The notes beneath the pieces are model-generated. The model made no database searches. It worked only from the letters and a program-made list of their open reading frames with translations, and was not told the origin of the DNA. Below, one piece after another: positions 1 through 27,505 of a DNA stretch of 36,928 nt (position 1 is the first letter of the stretch; each line of letters starts with the position of its first letter). The DNA is from Sphingomicrobium sp. (GTDB lineage: Bacteria; Pseudomonadota; Alphaproteobacteria; Sphingomonadales; Sphingomonadaceae), in contig JBDTZJ010000001.1 in the NCBI GenBank assembly GCA_040005255.1, positions 1 through 36,928 on the forward strand. Reading direction: 5' to 3'. Made by a program: the position numbers and the translations under genes.

Positions 1-641
1 TCGTCGTGATCGACGATTTCAGCGGCTCGCTCGAACACATTCTCGAAATTGCGGAAGAGCTCGCACCCTACCCTCGCCACACCAATTACTACCCGGGCCT
101 TAGACGTATCTTCACGGCCGCCGACACGGCCGCGAACGCCTATGCCGAAGAGGCTTGCGAGCACGCCGCGCAGTTCATCGCCGGCGCCTTCGACATCGAC
201 GACTTCGATCTCCTCGAAGCCAGCTTCTCGATGGTGACGCTGAAACCGACGGAGTTGTCTCCGCCGCAGCGAGCGCCGCATTTCGACACGACTGACCAGA
301 AGCAGCTCGCTTTGCTGCATTACCTTCGCGCGCCGCCCAATTCGGGGACGGCTTTTTACCGCCAGCGCGCAACGGGTATCGAGCGAGTGACCGAACTAAA
401 TGTCTCAGTCTTCGTCCCGGTCGCGGAAGTTCAGAATGCGCAGCTGCCCGCGGACTCGGGCTACTTCCACGGCTCGGACGAATTTTTCGAGCAGATAGGC
501 GCAGTCGAGGCGGTCCCGGACCGGATGATCATCTTTCAAGGCAGCCTGCTCCATTCGGGGATCATTCCGCCCGACATGCCGTTGACTGGCGACCCGCGTC
601 AGGGCCGGCTGACCGCCAACATCTTCGTTCGCGGCCATTGA
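1..641 (+). CDS. DUF6445-like protein (2OG-Fe(II) oxygenase-like), 5' end outside window
   Basis: Open from window edge; motifs VIDDF, YPGLR, PHFD, GTAFYR, HSG and RLTAN recalled from DUF6445 family. Confidence 0.7.
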   Translation, partial: VVIDDFSGSLEHILEIAEELAPYPRHTNYYPGLRRIFTAADTAANAYAEEACEHAAQFIAGAFDIDDFDLLEASFSMVTLKPTELSPPQRAPHFDTTDQKQLALLHYLRAPPNSGTAFYRQRATGIERVTELNVSVFVPVAEVQNAQLPADSGYFHGSDEFFEQIGAVEAVPDRMIIFQGSLLHSGIIPPDMPLTGDPRQGRLTANIFVRGH

Positions 642-652
642 AGGGAGCCAGG

Positions 653-733
653 ATGCGCAAGACGATGATGATGCTCGCAGCCGGTGCGGCCTTTGCGACT
701 GCGCATCGCCCATCAACAATCCCCAAGGCACGT
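653..733 (+). pseudogene. Probable truncated 5' fragment of a secreted protein (MRKTMMMLAAGAAFATA...)
   Basis: RBS AAGGGAG, ATG 653 and signal-peptide-like start; protein-like character is lost near the degenerate site at 734. Confidence 0.35.
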
Positions 734-761
734 TGTGCCATTTGCCGCCCATGGCGATCCC
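734..761 (+). repeat. Degenerate copy of the 28-bp site
   Basis: TGTGCCATTTG-CCGCCC-ATGGCGATCCC. Confidence 0.4.
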
Positions 762-968
762 GTTTTTGTCACGAGGGCCGAGAGCAGAGACTATTACCTC
801 CTTTGGGCATCCACCATTTTGATCGGACTAATCGGCGGATGGGTGTGCGTTCTGTATGACGTGCGGGTTCGAAAGTCTGAACCGCCGCAATGGCCACTAG
901 CCTCGATTGTCACAGCAGGTGGGGCCTATTTCGTTCTGTATTATCTGAACTTGGCGTTCAATGCGTAA
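735..968 (+). CDS. Small membrane protein (2 TM), start uncertain
   Basis: Two hydrophobic segments; TAA 966-968 overlaps the 28-bp site. Confidence 0.5.
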   Translation: MPFAAHGDPVFVTRAESRDYYLLWASTILIGLIGGWVCVLYDVRVRKSEPPQWPLASIVTAGGAYFVLYYLNLAFNA

Positions 969-995
969 CGTCCGCTTTCCACCCTTTGCCGACGT
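968..995 (+). repeat. 28-bp 11-6-11 site
   Basis: ACGTCCGCTTT-CCACCC-TTTGCCGACGT. Confidence 0.9.
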
Positions 996-1109
996 CGTTA
1001 CGCGATCGAGCTGGGTGTGGTACGGAAAGCCTACCGCGCCCCATCACCGCTGGCCCGAGCGCCGCTGAGAGACCCGACCAGCGCTCCCGCCCATCGAAAG
1101 GAGCAAATC

Positions 1110-1628
1110 GTGGCCTCAACGATCGCCAGCGCTGACATCGCTCAAACTGTCACTCTAGACGATCCCGTCACCGGCGGGCCGCCACCTGCGCTTCATCGCG
1201 GTGATAGCGACTTGCCATTCGTGCCATATCAGGAGGGTGTCACCTTTCAGCTCATCCAGGTCGACATAGAAGCAGGCTTCTTTGTGGTTCGGGTGCGCGG
1301 CGAGCCGGGCATGACGATCCAGCGGCACAAGCATACCGGCGAGATCTTTGCGTTCACCTCGGCGGGGTCGTGGAAGTACCTTGAATATCCTGAGGTCAAT
1401 ACCGCCGGATCATATCTCTACGAGCCCGCCGGATCGGTCCATACCTTGCACTTCCCCGAGACAAACACAGAAGTCACTGACGTCTCGTTTGTGCTGCATG
1501 GAGCCAATCTCAACCTCGATAGCGAAGGCAACGTTGAATCCGTGCTCGATGCGGGCGCAGCGCTCGCGGTCTATTATGCCGGTTGCAAGAATGCTGGGCT
1601 GCCGCACCCCAACGTCATCGGTGCATAA
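1110..1628 (+). CDS. 2,4'-dihydroxyacetophenone dioxygenase-family (ChrR-like) cupin
   Basis: RBS AAGGAG before GTG 1110; cupin motifs RHKHTG, GSWKYLEY, GSYLYEPAGSVHTL. Confidence 0.8.
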   Translation: MASTIASADIAQTVTLDDPVTGGPPPALHRGDSDLPFVPYQEGVTFQLIQVDIEAGFFVVRVRGEPGMTIQRHKHTGEIFAFTSAGSWKYLEYPEVNTAGSYLYEPAGSVHTLHFPETNTEVTDVSFVLHGANLNLDSEGNVESVLDAGAALAVYYAGCKNAGLPHPNVIGA

Positions 1629-1629
1629 G

Positions 1630-1657
1630 GCGTCCGCCTTCGACCCGTTGCGGACAA
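1630..1657 (+). repeat. 28-bp 11-6-11 site
   Basis: GCGTCCGCCTT-CGACCC-GTTGCGGACAA, 1 bp after the cupin stop. Confidence 0.9.
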
Positions 1658-1665
1658 AGCTCGCG

Positions 1666-1830
1666 TCATTTCTCCTTCGGAAACCAGTAATCGTCGCCCG
1701 TGACAGTCTCGATGCGCTCTTCGTAGCGCCTGGCGAGTTCCTCGTGCGCAGTCCGCGCCTGCTGGGTCCCGGCCGTCTCTGACCGCCTTCGCTCTACCTG
1801 CTGTCGATGGAACAGGTAATTGAGATCCAC
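1666..1830 (-). CDS. 54-aa small helical protein MDLNYLFHRQQVERRRSETAGTQQARTAHEELARRYEERIETVTGDDYWFPKEK (not in ORF track)
   Basis: Translated by hand; GTG start with GGAGG RBS; lies between two 28-bp sites. Confidence 0.75.
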   Translation of the reverse strand: MDLNYLFHRQQVERRRSETAGTQQARTAHEELARRYEERIETVTGDDYWFPKEK

Positions 1831-1922
1831 AAAAACCTCCGCTCAAGTGGAGCGAGGGATAGGCAGGCGATAGCTGTTCGTCTCCTCGGTAACGACCGGT
1901 AGAGCCCCGCTTGGGTCGGGTA

Positions 1923-1950
1923 AGGTCCGCCTCCGACCCATTGCGGACAT
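1923..1950 (+). repeat. 28-bp 11-6-11 site
   Basis: AGGTCCGCCTC-CGACCC-ATTGCGGACAT. Confidence 0.9.
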
Positions 1951-1988
1951 TGGGTGCGCAGGCGATACGTACGTCGGTGCGGAAAGGT

Positions 1989-2396
1989 ATGTTCCTGGAT
2001 GTGCTCTCCAAGCGGGCTCCTCGGATGGTGGTACTCACGTTGTGTGCCGCGCTTGTGGGCGCGTGGACCAGCGTACCTGTTGAGTTGACCGACGGTCTTG
2101 CGATCCTGGTCGGCAGCTTGGCCCTGGTGCTATTGGCTGCAAGAGGGCGGCGGAATCAGTTCAAGACCGCGGAAGAATTAGGCTTCACTCGATTCAGCGA
2201 CAGGATTGCCTACGAACTCGCCGGGAAGGGGTCGCCTCCGGGCTTCTACCTGCTCGGTTTCTTTGGCGTCATCACCATTTTCTTGACCGGCTTCCAGTCG
2301 CCATACTCGAGGCTCGCTTGGGCAGGGTTCTTCCTCGGTGTCGCTTGGGGCATCGCGAACGCGCATTATCCGGCGGACGAAGCTTCGGAACACTAG
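1989..2396 (+). CDS. Hypothetical membrane protein (about 4 TM)
   Basis: GGAAAGG before ATG 1989; hydrophobic segments; TAG overlaps the next site. Confidence 0.7.
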   Translation: MFLDVLSKRAPRMVVLTLCAALVGAWTSVPVELTDGLAILVGSLALVLLAARGRRNQFKTAEELGFTRFSDRIAYELAGKGSPPGFYLLGFFGVITIFLTGFQSPYSRLAWAGFFLGVAWGIANAHYPADEASEH

Positions 2397-2423
2397 CGTC
2401 CGCTTTCCACCCATTGCCGACAT
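2396..2423 (+). repeat. 28-bp 11-6-11 site
   Basis: GCGTCCGCTTT-CCACCC-ATTGCCGACAT. Confidence 0.9.
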
Positions 2424-2448
2424 TCCAAAGCCAATTACAGTCCGCGCC

Positions 2449-3624
2449 ATGAAGGCTTGGCTCGCATCGTTCCTGTTCCTGTTTCCGGCTGTAGCGGCAC
2501 CGAGCCGCGCGCTGCCTCCCGCGCCCTTAGTCGACGCGGCGGTTCACAAGGTCATGGTCGACACGGGCGCCAGAGGAGTTGCGCTGGCAATCATCGACGG
2601 CGGCCGGGTGCGGTACGTCCAAGCTTATGGCGTGCGCGACTCCCGCAATGATCCGTTGCGGACGGACACCGTCATGTACGGGGCGTCGCTGACGAAAGTT
2701 GTTTTTGCCTACACGGTTCTTCAGCTTGTCGATCAGCGGAAGCTCTCGCTCGACACGCCGCTCGCGGCCTATCTCGATAAGCCATTGCCGGAGTACGATA
2801 CCGAGGCGATCTATCCCGACAAATATGGGCCGTACCACGACCTCGCCAATGATCCGCGATGGAAGCAGATCACAGCGCGGATGGTGCTCACTCACTCCAC
2901 CGGCTTTGCGAACTTCTGGTTTATCGAGCCGGACCAGAAGCTGCGCATCCATTTCGATCCGGGTACGCGCTACAGCTACTCGGGCGAAGGCATGAGCCTG
3001 CTCCAGTTCGTCATCGAGAACGGCCGCAAGGACAAAGGTCTCGGGCTTGATCTCGGCCAACTCACGCAGGCCAATTTCGACAGGCTCGGGATGACGCGCA
3101 CGAGCCTCCAATGGCGGCCCGATTTCAGGCCCAATTTAGCCGACGGGTTCAACGACAGAGGTGAAGCCATTGCCCACGATGAGCGATCGAAGGTGCGCGC
3201 CGCCGGGTCGATGGACACGACGATTGCCGATCTGTCGAAGTTCGTCGCCGCTTTCGCTCGACACGAGGGGCTGAGTGCCGCGTCTTATGCGGAGATGTTG
3301 AAGCCGCAATTGCACATTGGAACGGCCACTCAATTCCCGAATTTCGGGACCGAGCTCCCACCGGATCGCCAGCGGAAGGATCTCTTCGCCGGACTTGGAC
3401 TTGTCGTGTTCGAAGGCCCTCGAGGCTCGGGCTTTTTCAAGGGCGGGCATGACGGTCAGACGGCCAATACGTTGGTCTGCATCAAACGGTCCAAACGCTG
3501 CGTCCTCATCCTGTCGAATGACGTGCGCGCTGAGGCTGGCTTTGCGAAGCTCGTCCGGTTCATTCTTGGCGACACCGGCGTCCCGTACGATTGGGAGTAT
3601 GGCGATCGAGCTGGAAAATCCTGA
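2449..3624 (+). CDS. Secreted serine hydrolase, beta-lactamase/AmpC-like family
   Basis: Signal peptide; SxxK (ASLTK), LTHSTG, YSYSGEG, KGGHDG. Confidence 0.88.
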   Translation: MKAWLASFLFLFPAVAAPSRALPPAPLVDAAVHKVMVDTGARGVALAIIDGGRVRYVQAYGVRDSRNDPLRTDTVMYGASLTKVVFAYTVLQLVDQRKLSLDTPLAAYLDKPLPEYDTEAIYPDKYGPYHDLANDPRWKQITARMVLTHSTGFANFWFIEPDQKLRIHFDPGTRYSYSGEGMSLLQFVIENGRKDKGLGLDLGQLTQANFDRLGMTRTSLQWRPDFRPNLADGFNDRGEAIAHDERSKVRAAGSMDTTIADLSKFVAAFARHEGLSAASYAEMLKPQLHIGTATQFPNFGTELPPDRQRKDLFAGLGLVVFEGPRGSGFFKGGHDGQTANTLVCIKRSKRCVLILSNDVRAEAGFAKLVRFILGDTGVPYDWEYGDRAGKS

Positions 3625-3630
3625 CACTTG

Positions 3631-3670
3631 AAAAAAAGGGGCGGGAGTCTGGCTCCCGCCCCAATCTTTT
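3631..3670. terminator. Intrinsic terminator, probably bidirectional
   Basis: A7-GGGGCGGGAG-tctgg-CTCCCGCCCC-aatctttt between convergent genes. Confidence 0.85.
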
Positions 3671-3683
3671 AGCGTAAAGTTCG

Positions 3684-3899
3684 TTAAATCGTCTTTTCGA
3701 GGTTCAGCGCGACGGGCTTGCTGTTGCTGTCGGTACCGATCTCATAGGACAGGCGCTGGCCGGTCGTCGGCGGGTTCGCCTTGATATCCCACTTAAACGC
3801 GCTCTTCTCGAACGGCAGATTGTCGCCGCCGGCTTCCGGCTTGATCGAGCCGCGGCCCTGATCGGCGTTGAATTCATTGACGGTGCCAAAATTTTTCAT
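3684..3899 (-). CDS. Cold-shock domain protein with atypical RNP motifs
   Basis: 71 aa; FGTVNEFNADQGRGSIKP...GQRLSYEI...ALNL; GAAGGAA RBS. Confidence 0.8.
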   Translation of the reverse strand: MKNFGTVNEFNADQGRGSIKPEAGGDNLPFEKSAFKWDIKANPPTTGQRLSYEIGTDSNSKPVALNLEKTI

Positions 3900-4144
3900 G
3901 CTGGGTTCCTTCGTTTCCAGGCACCGGAATTGGCGCCTGTTGGCTAGGAGACGTTGAAGATAGGCGGAAGGCTCGGCCCCGTTTCGCGTGAGGCGTTTCT
4001 TGTCAGGCCGGGCGCCCAATACCGTCTTGCGACTGGTAGCCCCTGTATAACGATCGCAGGCCTATAAGGGGGCCTCCATTCAGCCCGGTTACTACTCCGG
4101 CGGGGCCGTTTGCGGTGGAAGCGGTCGCCCAGGGGGAGAGTGGC

Positions 4145-5554
4145 TTAGAGCGGCACGCCGTAAAGGTCGTGCTCGTCCGCGTCCTCGACTTCGACCGAAA
4201 CGATGTCTCCCGGCTTGAGGTCGCCGGCGTCGCGCAGGTGGACCTCGCCGTCGATCTCGGGAGCATCGGCCTTGGAGCGGCCGGTGGCGCCGACCCCTCC
4301 ACCATAAGAGGCCCCTCCACCGCCTTCGGCGGTCCCCCTCCCCTCGAAATCGAGGGGAGGATGTTCATCGACGCGGTCGATCAGGACGTCGATGGTCGAA
4401 CCGACCTTGGCGGCGAGCTTCTCGGCTGAAATGCGGGCGGACAGGGCCATCACCGCCTCGTATCGCTCCTGCTTCACATTCTCGGGAACCTGGCCGTCCA
4501 TCGACGTCGCCGGAGCGCCCTCGACCGCCTCGAACTTGAACGCGCCGACGCGGTCGAGCTGCGCTTCCTCGAGCCAGGCGAGGAGGTAGGCGAAATCCTC
4601 TTCGGTTTCGCCGGGGAAGCCGACGACGAATGAGGAGCGGATCGCGAGCTCGGGTACCTGCGCCCGCCAGGAACGGATGCGCTGCAGCACCGTGGCGTCG
4701 TTCGCTGGGCGGCGCATGCGCCTCAGGACATTCGGACTCGCATGCTGGAACGGGATGTCGAGGTAGGGGAGGACCAGTCCCTCGGTCATCAGCGGGATCA
4801 CATTGTCGACGTGCGGGTAGGGATAGACGTAGTGCAGGCGGACCCATGCCCCGAGCTTGCCCAGCTCGCGCGAGAGGTCGGTCATGTGGGCGCGGACTTC
4901 CTCACCCTTCCACTGGCGAGGCTCATGCCGGATGTCGACGCCATAGGCCGACGTGTCCTGGCTGATGACCAGCAACTCCCTGGTGCCGGCGGCGACGAGC
5001 TTCTCCGCCTCGCGCAGGATCGCGTCGGGACGGCGGCTGACGAGGTCGCCGCGGAGGTGCGGGATGATGCAAAAGGCGCAGCGGTGGTTGCAGCCCTCGG
5101 AAATCTTCAAATAGCTGTAGTGGCGCGGGGTCAGCTTGAGGCCCGGCCCAAGGTCTCGGGCTGGCACGAGGTCGATGAACGCGTTCGGGATTGGCGGCGC
5201 CGCCTCGTGGACCGCGGCGACGACTTCCTCATATTGCTGCGGCCCGGTGACGGCGAGCACTTGCGGGAAGCGGGCCCGGATGACGTCGGCTTCCTTGCCC
5301 ATGCAGCCGGTGACGACGACGCGGCCGTTCTCGGCAATCGCCTCGCCAATCGCCTCGAGGCTCTCCGCCTTGGCGGAATCGAGAAAGCCGCAGGTGTTGA
5401 CCAACACCACGTCGGCCCCGGCATAGTTGGGCGACATGTCGTAACCGTCGGCGCGCAGCTTGGTCATGATCCGCTCGCTGTCCACGAGGGCCTTGGGACA
5501 GCCGAGCGAGACCAGCCCGACGCGCGGGGGCTTGGGGAGAGTTGTGACGTTCAT
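4145..5554 (-). CDS. rimO: Ribosomal protein S12 methylthiotransferase RimO
   Basis: [17 protein letters not shown], radical [15 protein letters not shown] domain [12 protein letters not shown]. Confidence 0.96.
4294..4363. repeat. Partial palindromic repeat element inserted in frame in rimO
   Basis: CCCCTCCACCGCCTTCGGCGGTCCCCCTCCCC-tcgaaatcga-GGGGAGGATG is nearly identical to 33659-33710. Confidence 0.88.
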
Positions 5555-5601
5555 CGGAAGGGCCGCGCCAATATAGGGTTTTCGCCGCGAAAACCAGACG
5601 C

Positions 5602-5976
5602 CTAGCCTTTGACCTCCACGGCGATGATGTGGAGGTCGTCCCCGCCGATATTCTCGACCGAATGCGGCGGAAGCGGATCGATCCAAAGACCGGCGCCTGG
5701 TGGCGGAGCGGATCGCTCGCGACTGTCGACCAGAATGATGCCATCCGCATCGCGGCGCAGGAAGTCGCTCCAGCTCAAAACGTAGAGAGCGGCAGGCCAT
5801 CCGTGTGCATGGACCGGCGTCCGTTCGCCGGGCGCGAGGCGAGTGTCGAGAATTCGCACCAGGTCGTTTTCAAACAGCACGCCGTGGTGATCCGGCGCCG
5901 CCGTCATTGCGTCGAGTACATGGCTGGCCATGTGACAAATATCCGCGAGCACGGCGGCTTCGGCAAGCTTGTTCAT
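5602..5976 (-). CDS. Cupin domain protein
   Basis: [29 protein letters not shown]; start may lie further downstream. Confidence 0.75.
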
Positions 5977-6026
5977 CGTGGTGCACGGCGGCTAAAGCGC
6001 CCCGCCAAGCCTGACGGAGTTTTCGA

Positions 6027-11905: not shown

Positions 11906-12478
11906 TCAGGCGGCCTGCAGCGCTTTCGACCGACGGCGGCGCATGGCGACGCCCATCGCGCCGAAGCCGAGAAGCATCATCGCCCATGTCGAGGGTTCGG
12001 GCACGCCCCCGCCGACGTTGATCACGAAATCGTCGAGATAGGTCGGGCCGGAGGTGGTCCCGTAAATCCCGAAGCCGACGAGGTTCTTGCCGGCCGCGAG
12101 GTTGCTGGTGACATTATACTGGTTCCAGCCCGACGCGCCGATGGCGTTGAGGATGAAGTCTTGCGACGTACTGTCGCTGTAGAAGAAGGTGTAGAGGTCG
12201 AATGGACCGCCGTCGCGCAACGCCCAGAAGGACACTTCGGTGATCTGCGACGTCGCAACGGCGCCGAAGGTCTGCTTGATCTGGTCCTCCGCGAACGCCG
12301 CGTCGGAATAAGTGCCGCTGTGCGCCTGGGCGCTGCTCACCGTCGGGGTGCCATTGGCGATCGTCCACGAAGCGAAGGTGCCGGTTTCGAAGCCGGGGTT
12401 GGACAGAACGTTCGATGCCTGGGCCGGAACGGCGAGCGAGCCCAGAACAAGCGCCGGGATCAAGAATTTGCGAAGCAT
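11906..12478 (-). CDS. PEP-CTERM (PEPxxWA) sorting-domain surface protein
   Basis: Signal peptide, NPGFETG, C-terminal VPEPSTWAMMLLGFG-TM-RRRR. Confidence 0.92.
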   Translation of the reverse strand: MLRKFLIPALVLGSLAVPAQASNVLSNPGFETGTFASWTIANGTPTVSSAQAHSGTYSDAAFAEDQIKQTFGAVATSQITEVSFWALRDGGPFDLYTFFYSDSTSQDFILNAIGASGWNQYNVTSNLAAGKNLVGFGIYGTTSGPTYLDDFVINVGGGVPEPSTWAMMLLGFGAMGVAMRRRRSKALQAA

Positions 12479-12528: not shown

Positions 12529-12767
12529 GCTAGTCAATGAAGCAGCTCGCAATTGGGTATTTTCCGCCGGTCCGTTGGCCCGGTCGACCAGCTCCGGGGC
12601 CGGATCGAGAGCATTGAGCGTCAATCCGGTCTGAATGTTCACGAAAGTTCGCGCTAACGGCGGGCGAAACCCAGCGCGTGTCACAAGCGCCGGCATTGGC
12701 CCCTGCCGTGAGGAGACGTCAAAGAGGGAGGAAGGTGCGGTTTAGCGCCCAAACCGTCGATTTCTAC

Positions 12768-12795
12768 TAGTAGCATAATCTATGTTATGCGGCGC
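12768..12795 (-). other. dif-like XerC/XerD site
   Basis: Minus strand GCGCCGCATAA-CATAGA-TTATGCTACTA versus E. coli dif GGTGCGCATAA-TGTATA-TTATGTTAAAT; intergenic, AT-rich flank. Confidence 0.7.
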
Positions 12796-12948
12796 GCCAA
12801 AAAACGACAATAGACGAGCAGAAACAATCAAATAATGATGGACCGTCTTTGGTCAAAAATCTTGCGAAATAAATAGACTTTTCGATGAAGAATGCGTAAG
12901 TAAACCTGTCGCTATTTTCGATACGGGCATTTTAGCGGTTGAGAGTGT

Positions 12949-14827: not shown

Positions 14828-15914
14828 ACCGACGGCCGAGACTAGTCCCAGCATAGCTAAGGTTGAGAACGAGATCCCGCAGGAGCAAGCTGTCGTCCGC
14901 GCGCTTCCAAAAGCGGAGGCTCTCGGACCGATATTGTCTCGCCGATTCAAACCCTATCGCGCCGATGTCAGGCGAAGCATCTTTCAGCTGGTTACGACCG
15001 CGACGCCGTTCATCGCGTTGCTCGTGGTGATGGCGGTAGCATCGCCTGGCCGCTACTGGCTGACCCTGTTGCTGGCGATTCCGACGGCTGGACTGCTCGT
15101 TCGCCTTTTCATCATCCAACATGACTGCGGTCACGGCTCGTTTTTCAAATCACGAGCCGCCAACGACTTCCTCGGGCGCGCGCTTAGCGTGCTGACGCTC
15201 ACTCCCTACGGCTGCTGGAAGCTAAGTCATGCCGCGCATCATGCCTCCGCCGGCAATCTGGACCGCCGTGGGCGTGGGGATGTGGAAACCTTGACCGTTG
15301 CCGAATATCAAGCCTCGGCGCCGCTCAAGAAGCTCGTTTATCGACTCTACCGCAATCCGTTCGTGATGGTCATATTGGGTGCGCCGATCAACTTCATCCT
15401 ACTGCATAGATTGCCGCTGGGCCACGAGTTCCGGGACCGTAAATCGCGCCGCAGCATCCTGTCGCTGGATCTCGCGTTGCTCGTGGCGTTCGGTCTTCCC
15501 TGCGCTATGTTCGGCGTCCTTCCAGTCCTGGGAACGTATCTCCCCGTGATGATCATTGCATCCTGGGTCGGGAACTGGCTGTTTTACGTGCAGCACCAGT
15601 TCGAAGGGACACATTGGGAGCGCGACGGCGAATGGGATTTCCACGAAGCCGGCGTAGGCGGCAGCTCATATTTTAAGCTTCCGCCGATCCTGCAATGGTT
15701 TTCCGGGAACATCGGGCTGCACCACGTGCACCACTTGTCTAGCCGGATTCCCAACTACCGCCTTCAGGCCTGTCTCGACGCCGCTCCGGAACTGCACGGC
15801 GTCTCCAAACTCATAACTCTGCGTGAGAGCCTGGGATGCTGGCGGCTGGCGCTTTGGGACGAGAGCAGCCGCTTGTTGGTGGGATTTCGGGATCTAAAGC
15901 CTCGGCTCGCTTAG
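14808..15914 (+). CDS. Membrane fatty acid desaturase
   Basis: His boxes HDCGH, HAAHH and HHVHH; WLFYVQHQFE. Confidence 0.93.
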   Translation: MIVTTPEPTAETSPSIAKVENEIPQEQAVVRALPKAEALGPILSRRFKPYRADVRRSIFQLVTTATPFIALLVVMAVASPGRYWLTLLLAIPTAGLLVRLFIIQHDCGHGSFFKSRAANDFLGRALSVLTLTPYGCWKLSHAAHHASAGNLDRRGRGDVETLTVAEYQASAPLKKLVYRLYRNPFVMVILGAPINFILLHRLPLGHEFRDRKSRRSILSLDLALLVAFGLPCAMFGVLPVLGTYLPVMIIASWVGNWLFYVQHQFEGTHWERDGEWDFHEAGVGGSSYFKLPPILQWFSGNIGLHHVHHLSSRIPNYRLQACLDAAPELHGVSKLITLRESLGCWRLALWDESSRLLVGFRDLKPRLA

Positions 15915-17373: not shown

Positions 17374-17590
17374 GGCTGGAGGGATTTTCGGGCTGTTCGC
17401 GGCGCTCTTGCTGATCGCATCGGTGGTGATCTGGGCAAAACGGCTTCGCGGACCTTTGCTGCAACGGCTCAACGGCCGGCGGACGTCGAACGTGCGTCCA
17501 ACCGAGCTGGCATCCCAAGTGCTGGTCTTCGCTTTGGGGCTGAGCGCGCTCGCCGCTGGGCTGGCGATCGTCGGGTGGATTTTCGCGTAA
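17366..17590 (+). CDS. Small membrane protein (2 TM)
   Basis: ATG overlaps the end of the upstream gene; two hydrophobic segments. Confidence 0.55.
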   Translation: MLEAGGIFGLFAALLLIASVVIWAKRLRGPLLQRLNGRRTSNVRPTELASQVLVFALGLSALAAGLAIVGWIFA

Positions 17591-18751: not shown

Positions 18752-18888
18752 AAAACAAGGACTAAGTATCGTCCGGTGGCCAGCTCATCAGGCCAGATGC
18801 CGTCATCACCAAGGTAGATGTTCCGATCCTCCTGACCGACGTCGTCCGCGGAGCCATTATCGGTTGGGCCCCGCTCAGTTCGTACTCT

Positions 18889-18916
18889 AGGTCCGCTTTC
18901 CACCCATTGCGGACAT
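18889..18916 (+). repeat. 28-bp 11-6-11 site
   Basis: AGGTCCGCTTT-CCACCC-ATTGCGGACAT. Confidence 0.92.
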
Positions 18917-18926
18917 CGCAGCGCAT

Positions 18927-19166
18927 TCAACGTGACACTCTGATGGCTGGCGCTTCCACCGCGTTGAACTGGAGCGTGAACAGCGTAAGACCTTTGTCGT
19001 CGGCAACCGTCATCATGAAATCGCCTGTGTTCCAGAACTCGCTAGCTCGGTCACAGAGCAGGCGGCCCGCGTAGCGGACGGCTTCGCATTTCGCGGACGC
19101 GAGGTTGGGGAGGTCTATCCCTAACTCCTCCGGCGGTCCGTCCACTTGGAAGTAGAAGCGAGGCAT
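18927..19166 (-). CDS. DUF6894-like small protein
   Basis: MPRFYF...GIDLPNLASAKCEA...VADDKGLTLF. Confidence 0.75.
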   Translation of the reverse strand: MPRFYFQVDGPPEELGIDLPNLASAKCEAVRYAGRLLCDRASEFWNTGDFMMTVADDKGLTLFTLQFNAVEAPAIRVSR

Positions 19167-19265
19167 TGTCGGGTAACCGACATACACGACAGAAGTGCCA
19201 ATAGTGATACGATTGGGAGCGAGTGGGTGAAAAAAGACACAATCTCAAGCTGTGACGGCTGTTCG

Positions 19266-19293
19266 ACGTCAGCGTTCCACCCGTCCATGACAC
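19266..19293 (+). repeat. 28-bp 11-6-11 site with diverged arms
   Basis: ACGTCAGCGTT-CCACCC-GTCCATGACAC. Confidence 0.7.
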
Positions 19294-19307
19294 TAGCGAG
19301 TTAGGTT

Positions 19308-19335
19308 AGGTCTGCTTTCGACCCAAACCCGACAT
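19308..19335 (+). repeat. 28-bp 11-6-11 site
   Basis: AGGTCTGCTTT-CGACCC-AAACCCGACAT. Confidence 0.8.
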
Positions 19336-19677
19336 AAGATCGCACCCCTTAGACTGTGCCGCCATGGCTGGACCTACCAGCTGCTTGGATCCACTCTCCC
19401 GGCGCGGTTCAGGAAACGCGAAATGCCGCAGATCAAGATGAGTCCCGCTTCCCCACGCATTCTAAAAATTCGTCCAGTGATTGCGTTTCCGCCCGACGAA
19501 CCGCTTGTTCGGGGGCATGGTGACATCGATTACATTATGTCCGAATTAGAATGGCCCTGCCCCGCTTCCTGAGCGTTGAGATACCTAAGTTGGGTGCGGT
19601 CTGCTTCGTAACTTCGCCCCTGCCGTGATGGCGCTCATTCCTCACGGCCGAATCCTCCGCGAAGCGGGAGATAAGTA

Positions 19678-20289
19678 ATGAACTCGGAACAGATGCTGCA
19701 ACAGACGGGCGCTGTCGAAGCGATCTCGCGCGAGCTCGGAGTAGACCCGGCAACGGCGCAGGCGGGAGCAGCGGCGTTAATGCCGTCCATCCTTTCCGGC
19801 TTCAAGAACCCAGCCTCATCGACGGAGTCGCAACCCGCGACTGGAGAGGGAGCAAGCGACAGTGCTTTTCCAGGGTTCGGCGGGCTCAACGGATTGCTCG
19901 GGACGATTGGCGGATTGGGCGGCAGTGGCCTGCTTGAAAACGTGACCTCGAACGAGCCGACCGAACTCAGCAAAGGCAATCAAATCCTGGGGCAGATCTT
20001 CGGTTCGAAGGATGGTAGCCGCGCTGTTGCGGCACAGGCGGCCGCGCAGTCGGGCGTCGAGCCTTCTCTCCTAAAGAAAATGCTGCCTATCCTCGCGATG
20101 GTTGCTGCCGGCTACGTCATGAAGCGCGCGGGCCAGGGCGGCGGCGGGCTTGGCGGGGGATTCGGAAGCGTGCTCGGGGGGCAACCTTCACCTGAGGGTT
20201 CGGCGCGTGCCCAGCGAGCGGAGCCGACGGGCTCGAACGACATTCTGGGCGAGCTGATTGGTGCGGCTGGCAAGTTCCTCGGCCGCTGA
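19678..20289 (+). CDS. DUF937-like glycine-rich protein
   Basis: GNQILGQIFGSKDGSRAVA, LLKKMLPILA. Confidence 0.8.
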   Translation: MNSEQMLQQTGAVEAISRELGVDPATAQAGAAALMPSILSGFKNPASSTESQPATGEGASDSAFPGFGGLNGLLGTIGGLGGSGLLENVTSNEPTELSKGNQILGQIFGSKDGSRAVAAQAAAQSGVEPSLLKKMLPILAMVAAGYVMKRAGQGGGGLGGGFGSVLGGQPSPEGSARAQRAEPTGSNDILGELIGAAGKFLGR

Positions 20290-20324
20290 CGCGGTCAAAG
20301 CAATTTCGATAAAGGAGACTAACA

Positions 20325-20726
20325 GTGAGCATTTTCGGAAAAATCAAAGACGCGATCTTCGGTCATAAGACCGCTTCAGCTCCCGCCGGTGGCGGGCAAA
20401 TCCCCGTAGGTGGACCATCCCCAGGCAATGCTGCGGCCCCGGCGCCGACGTTGGAGCCTGCTGTGGCTGTCGATGTCGAGCAGGTCCTGACGAGTATTGC
20501 CGCCTCGAAGGGCAATGCAGGCCTCAACTACAGAACTTCGATCGTCGATCTGATGAAGCTGCTTGGCATGGATTCGAGCCTCGAGAACCGCAAGGAATTG
20601 GCCACCGAGCTTGGCTACACCGGCGAAAAGGACGGCAGCGCCGAGATGAACATTTGGCTACACAGGGAAGTGATGCGTCAACTGGCCGCAAATGGCGGCA
20701 AGGTTCCTTCCAGCATGACCGACTAA
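20325..20726 (+). CDS. DUF3597-like protein
   Basis: AAGGAG RBS; SIVDLMKLLG.DSSLENRKELA.ELGY.G, MNIWLH. Confidence 0.85.
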   Translation: MSIFGKIKDAIFGHKTASAPAGGGQIPVGGPSPGNAAAPAPTLEPAVAVDVEQVLTSIAASKGNAGLNYRTSIVDLMKLLGMDSSLENRKELATELGYTGEKDGSAEMNIWLHREVMRQLAANGGKVPSSMTD

Positions 20727-20784
20727 CCTGAACGATTACAGGCGGGGCTGTGGCACGGAAGCCGCCGCCCCGCCCGGCGGGCCA

Positions 20785-20812
20785 ATGTCCGCTTTCCACC
20801 GAAATCGGACAC
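20785..20812 (+). repeat. 28-bp 11-6-11 site at the right edge of the accessory patch
   Basis: ATGTCCGCTTT-CCACCG-AAATCGGACAC, 5 bp from the parE stop. Confidence 0.88.
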
Positions 20813-20817
20813 TGGGC

Positions 20818-27168: not shown

Positions 27169-27399
27169 AGGATAGCTCCTCACAGCCGCGTCTTCTCAAG
27201 CATCCACCATGAAGCGGTCACAGGGTGAAACTCTACCCAAAGTGAGGTCGGAACGGTAGCGGGTCCGCGCTCGAATGCACTTGGCGACTCGAGTATTTCT
27301 CAAAGATAGAAAGATGACTGCAGAACACATTCGGCCCGTTGAAGTTGCACACTGGGCGGTGAATACGGGCTCGGGTAGGCGTTGCTCACCTACTTAGTA

Positions 27400-27427
27400 A
27401 TGTCCGCTTTCCACCCAAAGTAGACGT
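27400..27427 (+). repeat. 28-bp 11-6-11 site
   Basis: ATGTCCGCTTT-CCACCC-AAAGTAGACGT. Confidence 0.85.
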
Positions 27428-27505
27428 TAGGCGGGCGCCCGCATTCTCGCGAAAGAAGAACGGGGGTCGGTTGTCCCTTTGCGCCGACTTTCCTATCTTC
27501 GCCCC

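Follow-up and report, generated by a model that had tools for sequence, protein, structure and literature searches.

The window examined here is a stretch of 36,928 nucleotides from Sphingomicrobium sp. (contig C36, JBDTZJ010000001.1) that carries, near its left end, an array of small genes separated by copies of a 32-bp palindromic site. At these sites, strains have acquired, lost, or exchanged individual modules, with the crossover falling in the 6-bp core of the site. We consider it probable that the array is made of cassettes bounded by this site and that the modules are exchanged, likely by a mini tyrosine recombinase that is encoded elsewhere and acts in trans. The window belongs to a 1.7-Mb assembly of 204 contigs that is 71% complete, and the genome-wide negative results given below apply to this assembly. 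Because contigs from sequencing runs X1 and X2 bridge the array junctions, the array is not a misassembly; run X1 may come from the source sample itself.

A repeat search of window positions 1 to 6000 returned a single family, with four direct 28-nt copies at 966, 1628, 1921, and 2394. The full site is a 32-bp palindrome with the consensus TAATGTCYGCTTT-CSACCC-AWWGCRGACATTA, in which two 13-bp arms enclose an asymmetric 6-bp core. The core reads C[C/G]ACCC, and the two resulting types (C-core and G-core) differ at position 15. A matrix trained on the genome outside the window, and so without these copies, gave the four copies 22 to 44 bits. A first-pass annotation of this DNA had listed a fifth, degenerate site at 734. 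That position scored −22 bits ungapped and −11 bits gapped, under the best background scores (+3 to −9), and it is coding sequence within the first open reading frame (ORF1), in a stretch conserved in 5/5 protein homologues. A possible minus-strand site near 4130 also scored within the background and was discarded. At a cutoff of at least 16 bits, the genome holds 88 copies on 14/204 contigs, versus 1 in the reversed genome used as a control. These copies form co-oriented arrays that lie among accessory genes, and the window array is a small part of a system that extends over the whole genome. Degenerate copies occur, as do tandem doubles at a spacing of 35 to 37 bp. Across the genus, the site was found in 107/121 genomes when two mismatches were allowed (control, 0), with up to 140 copies per genome, and in the family it was found in 11/151 genomes at one mismatch. 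Genomes G170, G247, and G271 are included in the genus tally and in the genus-wide matching of cassette genes; they are excluded from the statistics on covariation in 410 sites, on the parE end, on 18 versus 99 genomes, and on 17 recombinase homologues, and nothing else reported here depends on them. An Rfam scan of the window gave no match. Two site variants were seen along the way: in G229, many of the 50 sites are altered symmetrically in the two arms, at positions 6 and 27, and in G015, which belongs to another genus, the second site of each double at locus L082 has a distinct left arm, a difference that suggests lineage-specific variants of two site types.

Four cassettes and one further gene make up the array. 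Cassette 1 (ORF1, 700 to 968, plus strand) is a 5′-truncated gene for a small membrane protein, with five homologues at 63 to 95% identity, three of which have longer N termini. It is followed by a C-core site at 966 to 997 (plus strand, 36 bits) whose right-arm end has been shortened by a deletion of about 22 bp, as judged from the alignment with G238. Cassette 2 (1110 to 1628, plus strand) encodes a ChrR-type cupin related to 2,4′-dihydroxyacetophenone dioxygenase, identified by profile match and present in six other genomes in other contexts; the G-core site behind it (1628 to 1659, plus strand) is the weakest of the four at 22 bits. Cassette 3 (1666 to 1830, minus strand), a 54-amino-acid (54-aa) gene inverted relative to the sites, has a homologue in G284 that is 83% identical. 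Third codon positions account for 17/28 of the changes between the two, indicating conservation at the protein level, although the G284 copy has an internal stop. Next come a G-core site (1921 to 1952, plus strand, 38 bits), cassette 4 (1989 to 2396, plus strand), a 135-aa membrane-protein gene with homologues, and the last site of the run, a C-core copy at 2394 to 2425 (plus strand, 44 bits). The core order is thus C, G, G, C, with the first site lost. A serine hydrolase of beta-lactamase fold (2449 to 3624, plus strand), far under every class C beta-lactamase cutoff, lies downstream of the last site. The gene identities proposed in the first-pass annotation, including the single inverted gene, are borne out by profile matches and homologues. 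Its alternating layout of site and gene holds for the earlier genes but not for the hydrolase, which has no following site and is not closed as a cassette would be. Its claim that plus-strand stop codons abut the sites is correct for ORF1 (966 to 968) and ORF4 (2394 to 2396), whose stop codons double as the opening three bases of the site, whereas the cupin stop is off by two bases.

Evidence for movement comes from the scattered whereabouts of these genes, from an exact empty allele, and from junctions inside sites in near-identical strains, which together uphold the earlier proposal of sequentially accreted single-gene cassettes. The cupin, 54-aa, 135-aa, hydrolase, and cold-shock genes (the last lies beyond the hydrolase) each match singly in other neighborhoods of the genus, with homology stopping near sites, and the array was present in 0/6 relatives examined at the DUF6445 gene on its left, so that none of these relatives kept the same genes in order without the sites. 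The same site flanks homologues elsewhere for the cupin, 135-aa, and cold-shock genes: full sites lie on both sides of the cupin gene and of the 135-aa gene in G238, and the cupin stop is followed by site remnants in G269, G208, and G231. No site was seen at the cupin gene in G260 or G214 or beside the hydrolase homologues in G273, G277, and G169. The interval from DUF6445 to the cold-shock gene, previously suggested as a fixed frame for comparison, does not serve as one, since the cold-shock gene is flanked by sites in 3/8 relatives examined and is not beside rimO in 5/5.

The empty allele is seen in contigs of two studies (runs X7 and X9) that pass from position 1919 to position 2398 through four intervening letters and so omit 478 bases. 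In these contigs the 135-aa module is missing and one site is kept; the shorter side of the match is 123 letters in X9 and 36 in X7. Since one site stays behind in the empty allele, a model in which both whole sites are the ends of an element was abandoned. Locus L290, which is 98.0% identical to the window over positions 1 to 981, turns unrelated at position 16 of site 966, and other contigs diverge in the same site at position 19 (X9) and position 28 (X6). An X8 contig has different DNA upstream of site 2394. Joints in X5, with fewer than 30 letters on one side, were treated as copies of the site and not as excisions, and a search of metagenomes for the exact junction pattern found nothing. 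Within the assembly itself, two contexts contain a 390-bp module with 100% identity, which begins at position 9 in one site and stops at position 28 in the following one; this duplication may reflect co-assembled strains.

To place the crossover, we compared 389 flanked sites. Upstream DNA is common to the two members of 9 pairs and downstream DNA to those of 12; some of these pairs are tandem doubles that carry little information. Each arm stays with the DNA on its own side, the left with what lies upstream and the right with what lies downstream. Position 15 agrees in 8/9 pairs with common upstream DNA and in 7/12 pairs with common downstream DNA, which indicates that G-core and C-core sites exchange with each other and that the switch usually lies to the right of position 15. 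The crossover maps to positions 14 to 19, that is, within the core.

At the symmetric arm positions of 410 unique sites, complementarity equals the expectation from base frequencies at all arm pairs. This lack of covariation argues against a conserved hairpin and fits the free exchange of halves. Only site 966 folded better than shuffles (2/9 folds), and a single-strand hairpin model was rejected on the weak folds and the absent covariation. The attC sites of integrons are about 55 to 140 bp long and fold as single strands whose complementarity is kept by covariation. A reading of the sites as attC variants of very short length, and of the array as an integrase-less cluster of integron cassettes (CALIN), is very improbable. 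Among 196 modules (median, 745 bp), a rough gene call placed one gene in 131, and a stop codon coincides with the first or last triplet of the site in 24/131 (17/89 co-oriented and 7/42 inverted genes); the outer bases of the site also loosely resemble attC R boxes. Set against these likenesses are the 32-bp length, the folding and covariation results, the 42/131 inverted genes, and a crossover that is central and not at the outer box. In addition, no protein in the 71%-complete assembly matched above the TIGR02249 cutoff for IntI, and the enzyme linked to the site, described below, lacks an IntI-type insertion in comparison with XerD. The attC comparison drawn in the first-pass annotation stands as an analogy only. 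The preferred reading is of a double-stranded substrate, similar to loxP or dif, rather than a folded strand similar to attC. A module would leave as a circle carrying one site and enter at another site, and under such a scheme arrays would grow and keep one direction.

The arrays do keep one direction. Neighboring site pairs were co-oriented in 69/71 cases in the source genome and in 173/187 cases in three single-contig genomes. In 52 runs of at least two sites, a G-core copy stood first in 46 and a C-core copy last in 40 (Fisher P = 2e-12; the runs are not independent), and 20/25 tandem doubles were ordered C then G. The G-core copy may be the entry site and the C-core copy the cassette-borne site, roles that would yield the G-first, C-last order. 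This rule is tentative because one of the nine pairs with common upstream DNA disagrees at position 15 and because the contigs with the empty allele do not show which core base it has. A promoter scan found none and was uninformative as to a shared promoter. It is quite unlikely that the 32-mer is instead a selfish short repeat, similar to repetitive extragenic palindromes (REP) or miniature inverted-repeat transposable elements, that collects in accessory regions and whose dispersed copies swap genes by homologous or microhomology recombination. The many copies, with tandem doubles and degenerate ones among them, and the persistence of arrays without a linked enzyme fit such a repeat. They must be set against the co-orientation of neighbors, the G-first, C-last order, and the restriction of crossovers to the core. 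Moreover, no Y1 transposase of the REP-associated type (RAYT; PF01797) was found in the 71%-complete assembly, and a degenerate match of 32 bp is short for RecA.

The likely enzyme of the sites is a tyrosine recombinase of about 205 residues that consists of the catalytic domain only. Four PF00589 matches were found in the source genome: two Xer-like genes and one 420-aa integrase (labels given by sequence inspection) and one broken short gene on contig C5, which sits exactly where site orientation flips, in the layout seen around intact homologues. Intact homologues are about 200 to 210 aa long, and the closest are in records named Sphingomicrobium and Sphingomonas. The linked recombinase scores over the PF00589 cutoff, and residues R59, K87, H156, R159, H182, and Y191 (G015 numbering) are invariant in 42/42 homologues. 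Alignment of the G015 protein with XerD begins at residue 44 and contains no long insertion; only the catalytic domain of XerD or XerH aligned. About 40 residues precede the catalytic domain, and the N-terminal core-binding domain of "simple" recombinases is lacking. An alignment-based structure model (predicted local distance difference test [pLDDT], 88) was used in place of a single-sequence fold (pLDDT, 42) and is a lone catalytic domain that matches XerA, XerH, and Cre.

The linkage of this gene to the sites is strict among close homologues. Around 17 homologues of at least 67% identity, 24/24 upstream sites point in and 32/32 downstream sites point back, such that 56/56 sites within 1.5 kb face the gene. 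The nearest site is of the C-core type on both sides (14/14 and 15/15; 29/29 in all), and the same converging layout occurs in another genus (G015). In a wider set of at least 66% identity (73/80 loci, 7 short ones having been dropped), which overlaps the genus set and is not independent of the count for 17 homologues, the rule was followed by 68/68 downstream and 38/48 upstream sites. A recombinase gene placed between two converging C-core sites would be invertible but not excisable by its own action, and it would anchor arrays on both sides. Genomes with a member of the close clade carried a median of 30 sites and none of the 18 was without sites, compared to a median of about 10 sites in the other 99 (kin are not independent). 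Eleven distant homologues had 5 sites. Homologues occur on 312 plasmid records, including those of Escherichia and Klebsiella.

Several results weigh against the preferred explanation. The only copy found in the source genome is broken and lies on another contig (C5). At least 15 sites were present in 40/99 genomes without the close clade, and no family member was found in the near-complete genomes G229, G226, and G283 (50, 21, and 18 sites, respectively); G229 has only three tyrosine recombinases, G244 has a recombinase fragment, and G210 has a split distant copy. Around 53 distant homologues (below 66% identity) there were only 8 matrix matches, and arms-only matching around distant homologues gave 17, versus 9 in the control; linkage of site and gene is therefore not established family-wide. 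Hydrolase and 54-aa homologues lack scoring sites. No site lies within 1.5 kb of the parE end in 23/26 relatives, and the founding of new arrays is not accounted for. For the site-rich genomes without the gene, we infer either loss after the arrays were built or the action of a transient copy. The window array is likely an orphan that was built earlier or by a visiting copy of the recombinase.

These site-rich genomes would also be expected if the sites were true recombination sites served by host XerC/XerD or another unlinked recombinase, with the mini-recombinase a passenger that survives where arrays converge. The source genome has Xer-like genes, and the 6-bp core matches Xer geometry. We regard this explanation as unlikely. 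The arms of the site are unlike the dif-like sequence on contig C161 (near 3393), which looks like the chromosomal dif; a second dif-like sequence lies in a low-G+C stretch of the window at about 12766 to 12797. A passenger need not occupy the point at which polarity switches, yet all nearby sites face the mini-recombinase. Xer is near universal, but the site is present in a small minority of family genomes.

Outside the sphingomonads, the site family has a probable published relative in the repeats around the phage P2 gene fun(Z). Passages in PMC8987985 and PMC9122126 credit Nilsson et al. (2004) with inverted repeats that flank fun(Z) in P2-like coliphages and enterobacteria; these repeats are said to exchange fun between P2 and enterobacteria. 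In the P2 genome, the two best matches to the window matrix bracket fun(Z). The match at 15331 to 15362 scored 16.6 bits in full (0/30 shuffles reach this score) and 22.7 bits with the arms only, above all shuffles, and that at 17428 to 17459 scored 3.6 bits, which is not significant alone. From their position, which fits the relevant passage of PMC8987985, we infer that these matches are the published repeats. They resemble the window site in their arms, 13-6-13 layout, 6-bp core, and two core types; they differ in the core sequences and in forming two inverted copies at one locus rather than long co-oriented arrays. Five enterobacterial plasmid loci whose recombinase homologues are 56 to 59% identical carried 2 to 9 arms-only matches each, versus 0.3 to 1.1 in shuffles, together with the two P2 core types. 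At these loci, a site stood just before the start codon in 5/5 and just after the stop in 4/5, as read partly by eye. At L285, L287, and L288, a perfect inverted repeat overlies the beginning of the enterobacterial recombinase gene, start codon and ribosome-binding site included. Somewhat better than even, in our estimate, is the chance that these pieces form a second, integron-independent cassette system spanning the Proteobacteria, in which a catalytic-domain-only recombinase is locked between converging sites, builds polar arrays to its left and right as well as dozens of orphan ones elsewhere, and takes its direction from a one-base dimorphism of the core, and whose recombinase family stands behind the repeats that swap anti-phage genes at the P2 fun(Z) locus. 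No description of the site with its enzyme, arrays, and polarity was found in the literature searched, which took in few subscription papers and neither of the P2 papers of 2004 and 2006. The cassette array is real and of a non-integron type that is apparently undescribed.

Comparison with known systems places the array near several of them. Like integrons and CALINs, it has modules of one gene each with a site between them, arrays that keep to one direction or stand as orphans, stop codons that touch the sites, tyrosine chemistry, and possibly a pairing of entry site and cassette site. Of the integron traits, single-gene cassettes with co-oriented sites were found, and attC structure, crossover at the outer R box, and co-oriented genes were not. 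Here, in contrast to integrons, the site is 32 bp long without hairpin covariation, the crossover is central, a third of the genes are inverted, and arrays lie on both sides of the recombinase gene and at many chromosomal places. The pdif (XerC/XerD) modules of Acinetobacter plasmids likewise have short palindromic sites, a 6-bp core, and one-gene modules. The present system differs from them in that its arms are unlike dif, neighboring sites are co-oriented and not alternating, the arrays are chromosomal, and a recombinase of its own is linked. Invertases of the FimB/FimE type are alike at about 200 aa, and the linked recombinase gave weak matches to two NCBIfam "tyrosine-type DNA invertase" models, those of FimE and FimB, over most of the length of the models. 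These matches reached 25 and 22 bits against a cutoff of about 222, and FimB and FimE flip one promoter segment and form no arrays. Compared with IntI, whose domain layout is given in PMC8138268, the linked enzyme lacks the core-binding domain and the insertion. In the GMT island report (bioRxiv 10.1101/2023.03.28.534373), those islands are similar in using a tyrosine recombinase and inserting into inverted-repeat sites but require three proteins and move as whole islands, a layout not seen here.

If the preferred reading is true, such a system would account for the shuffling of a large pool of accessory genes in soil sphingomonads without a detectable integron. Gene cassettes would then have a second system beside the integron, and the similar repeats around P2 fun would gain a candidate enzyme. 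A recombinase of about 205 residues with a 32-bp directional site could serve as a compact engineering tool, and it raises the question of how a recombinase without a core-binding domain holds DNA. Site-borne cargo in the source genome includes five TIR-TPR proteins, histidine kinases, an SRAP protein, and a Flp pilin. The five TIR-TPR genes are different from one another, encode 590 to 650 aa, and form site-bounded modules in L291, L292, L293, and L294 (C5, C179, C47, and C105); they are possibly anti-phage or signaling cargo.

The left edge of the array is bounded by a DUF6445 gene (1 to 641, plus strand, 5′ end outside the window; PF20043), whose G159 orthologue is 93% identical, and by a 5′ remnant of a glycoside hydrolase family 43 (GH43) gene (653 to 697, plus strand). 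Homology to G159 stops at 697, and the family is known from the G157 gene at the same position. In relatives, the GH43 gene follows DUF6445; here a deletion has truncated it, the deletion joint carries no site, and its remainder was not found in the 71%-complete assembly. Homologue comparison identifies ORF1 as a real gene that lost its 5′ part along with most of the GH43 gene and that also lost its upstream site. A comparison of frames indicates that it is probably frameshifted near 725. Within the genus it was found in 0/250 genomes, though the five protein homologues exist. Strains part from one another at 647, 651, and 691, none of which has a site, so this edge is a general hotspot.

To the right lies the cold-shock-domain gene (3684 to 3899, minus strand; weak PF00313 match), a mobile passenger flanked by sites in G157, G264, and G278. 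The adjoining gene is of the rimO type, as its domains indicate. A palindromic repeat of about 72 bp (4293 to 4366) is an in-frame insertion in this rimO-type gene, is missing from several relatives, and has about a dozen related copies in the genome. The window holds another array of this site (18887 to 20814, plus strand), with copies at 18887, 19264 (a weak one), 19306, and 20783, which ends 4 bp from the stop of a parE-type gene, and a solo copy (27398 to 27429, plus strand, 48 bits) lies upstream of an Hsp33 gene. The 3′ end of the parE-type gene is variable, with the same sites present in 3/26 relatives. An array in G171 likewise ends 4 bp from the parE-type stop and has in common a right-arm variant found in only 3/410 sites. 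Short tandem duplications cover the last codons of the parE-type gene next to its stop in L255, L282, and L267. Elsewhere in the window, a gene for a PEP-CTERM protein (11906 to 12478) adjoins the part lowest in G+C.

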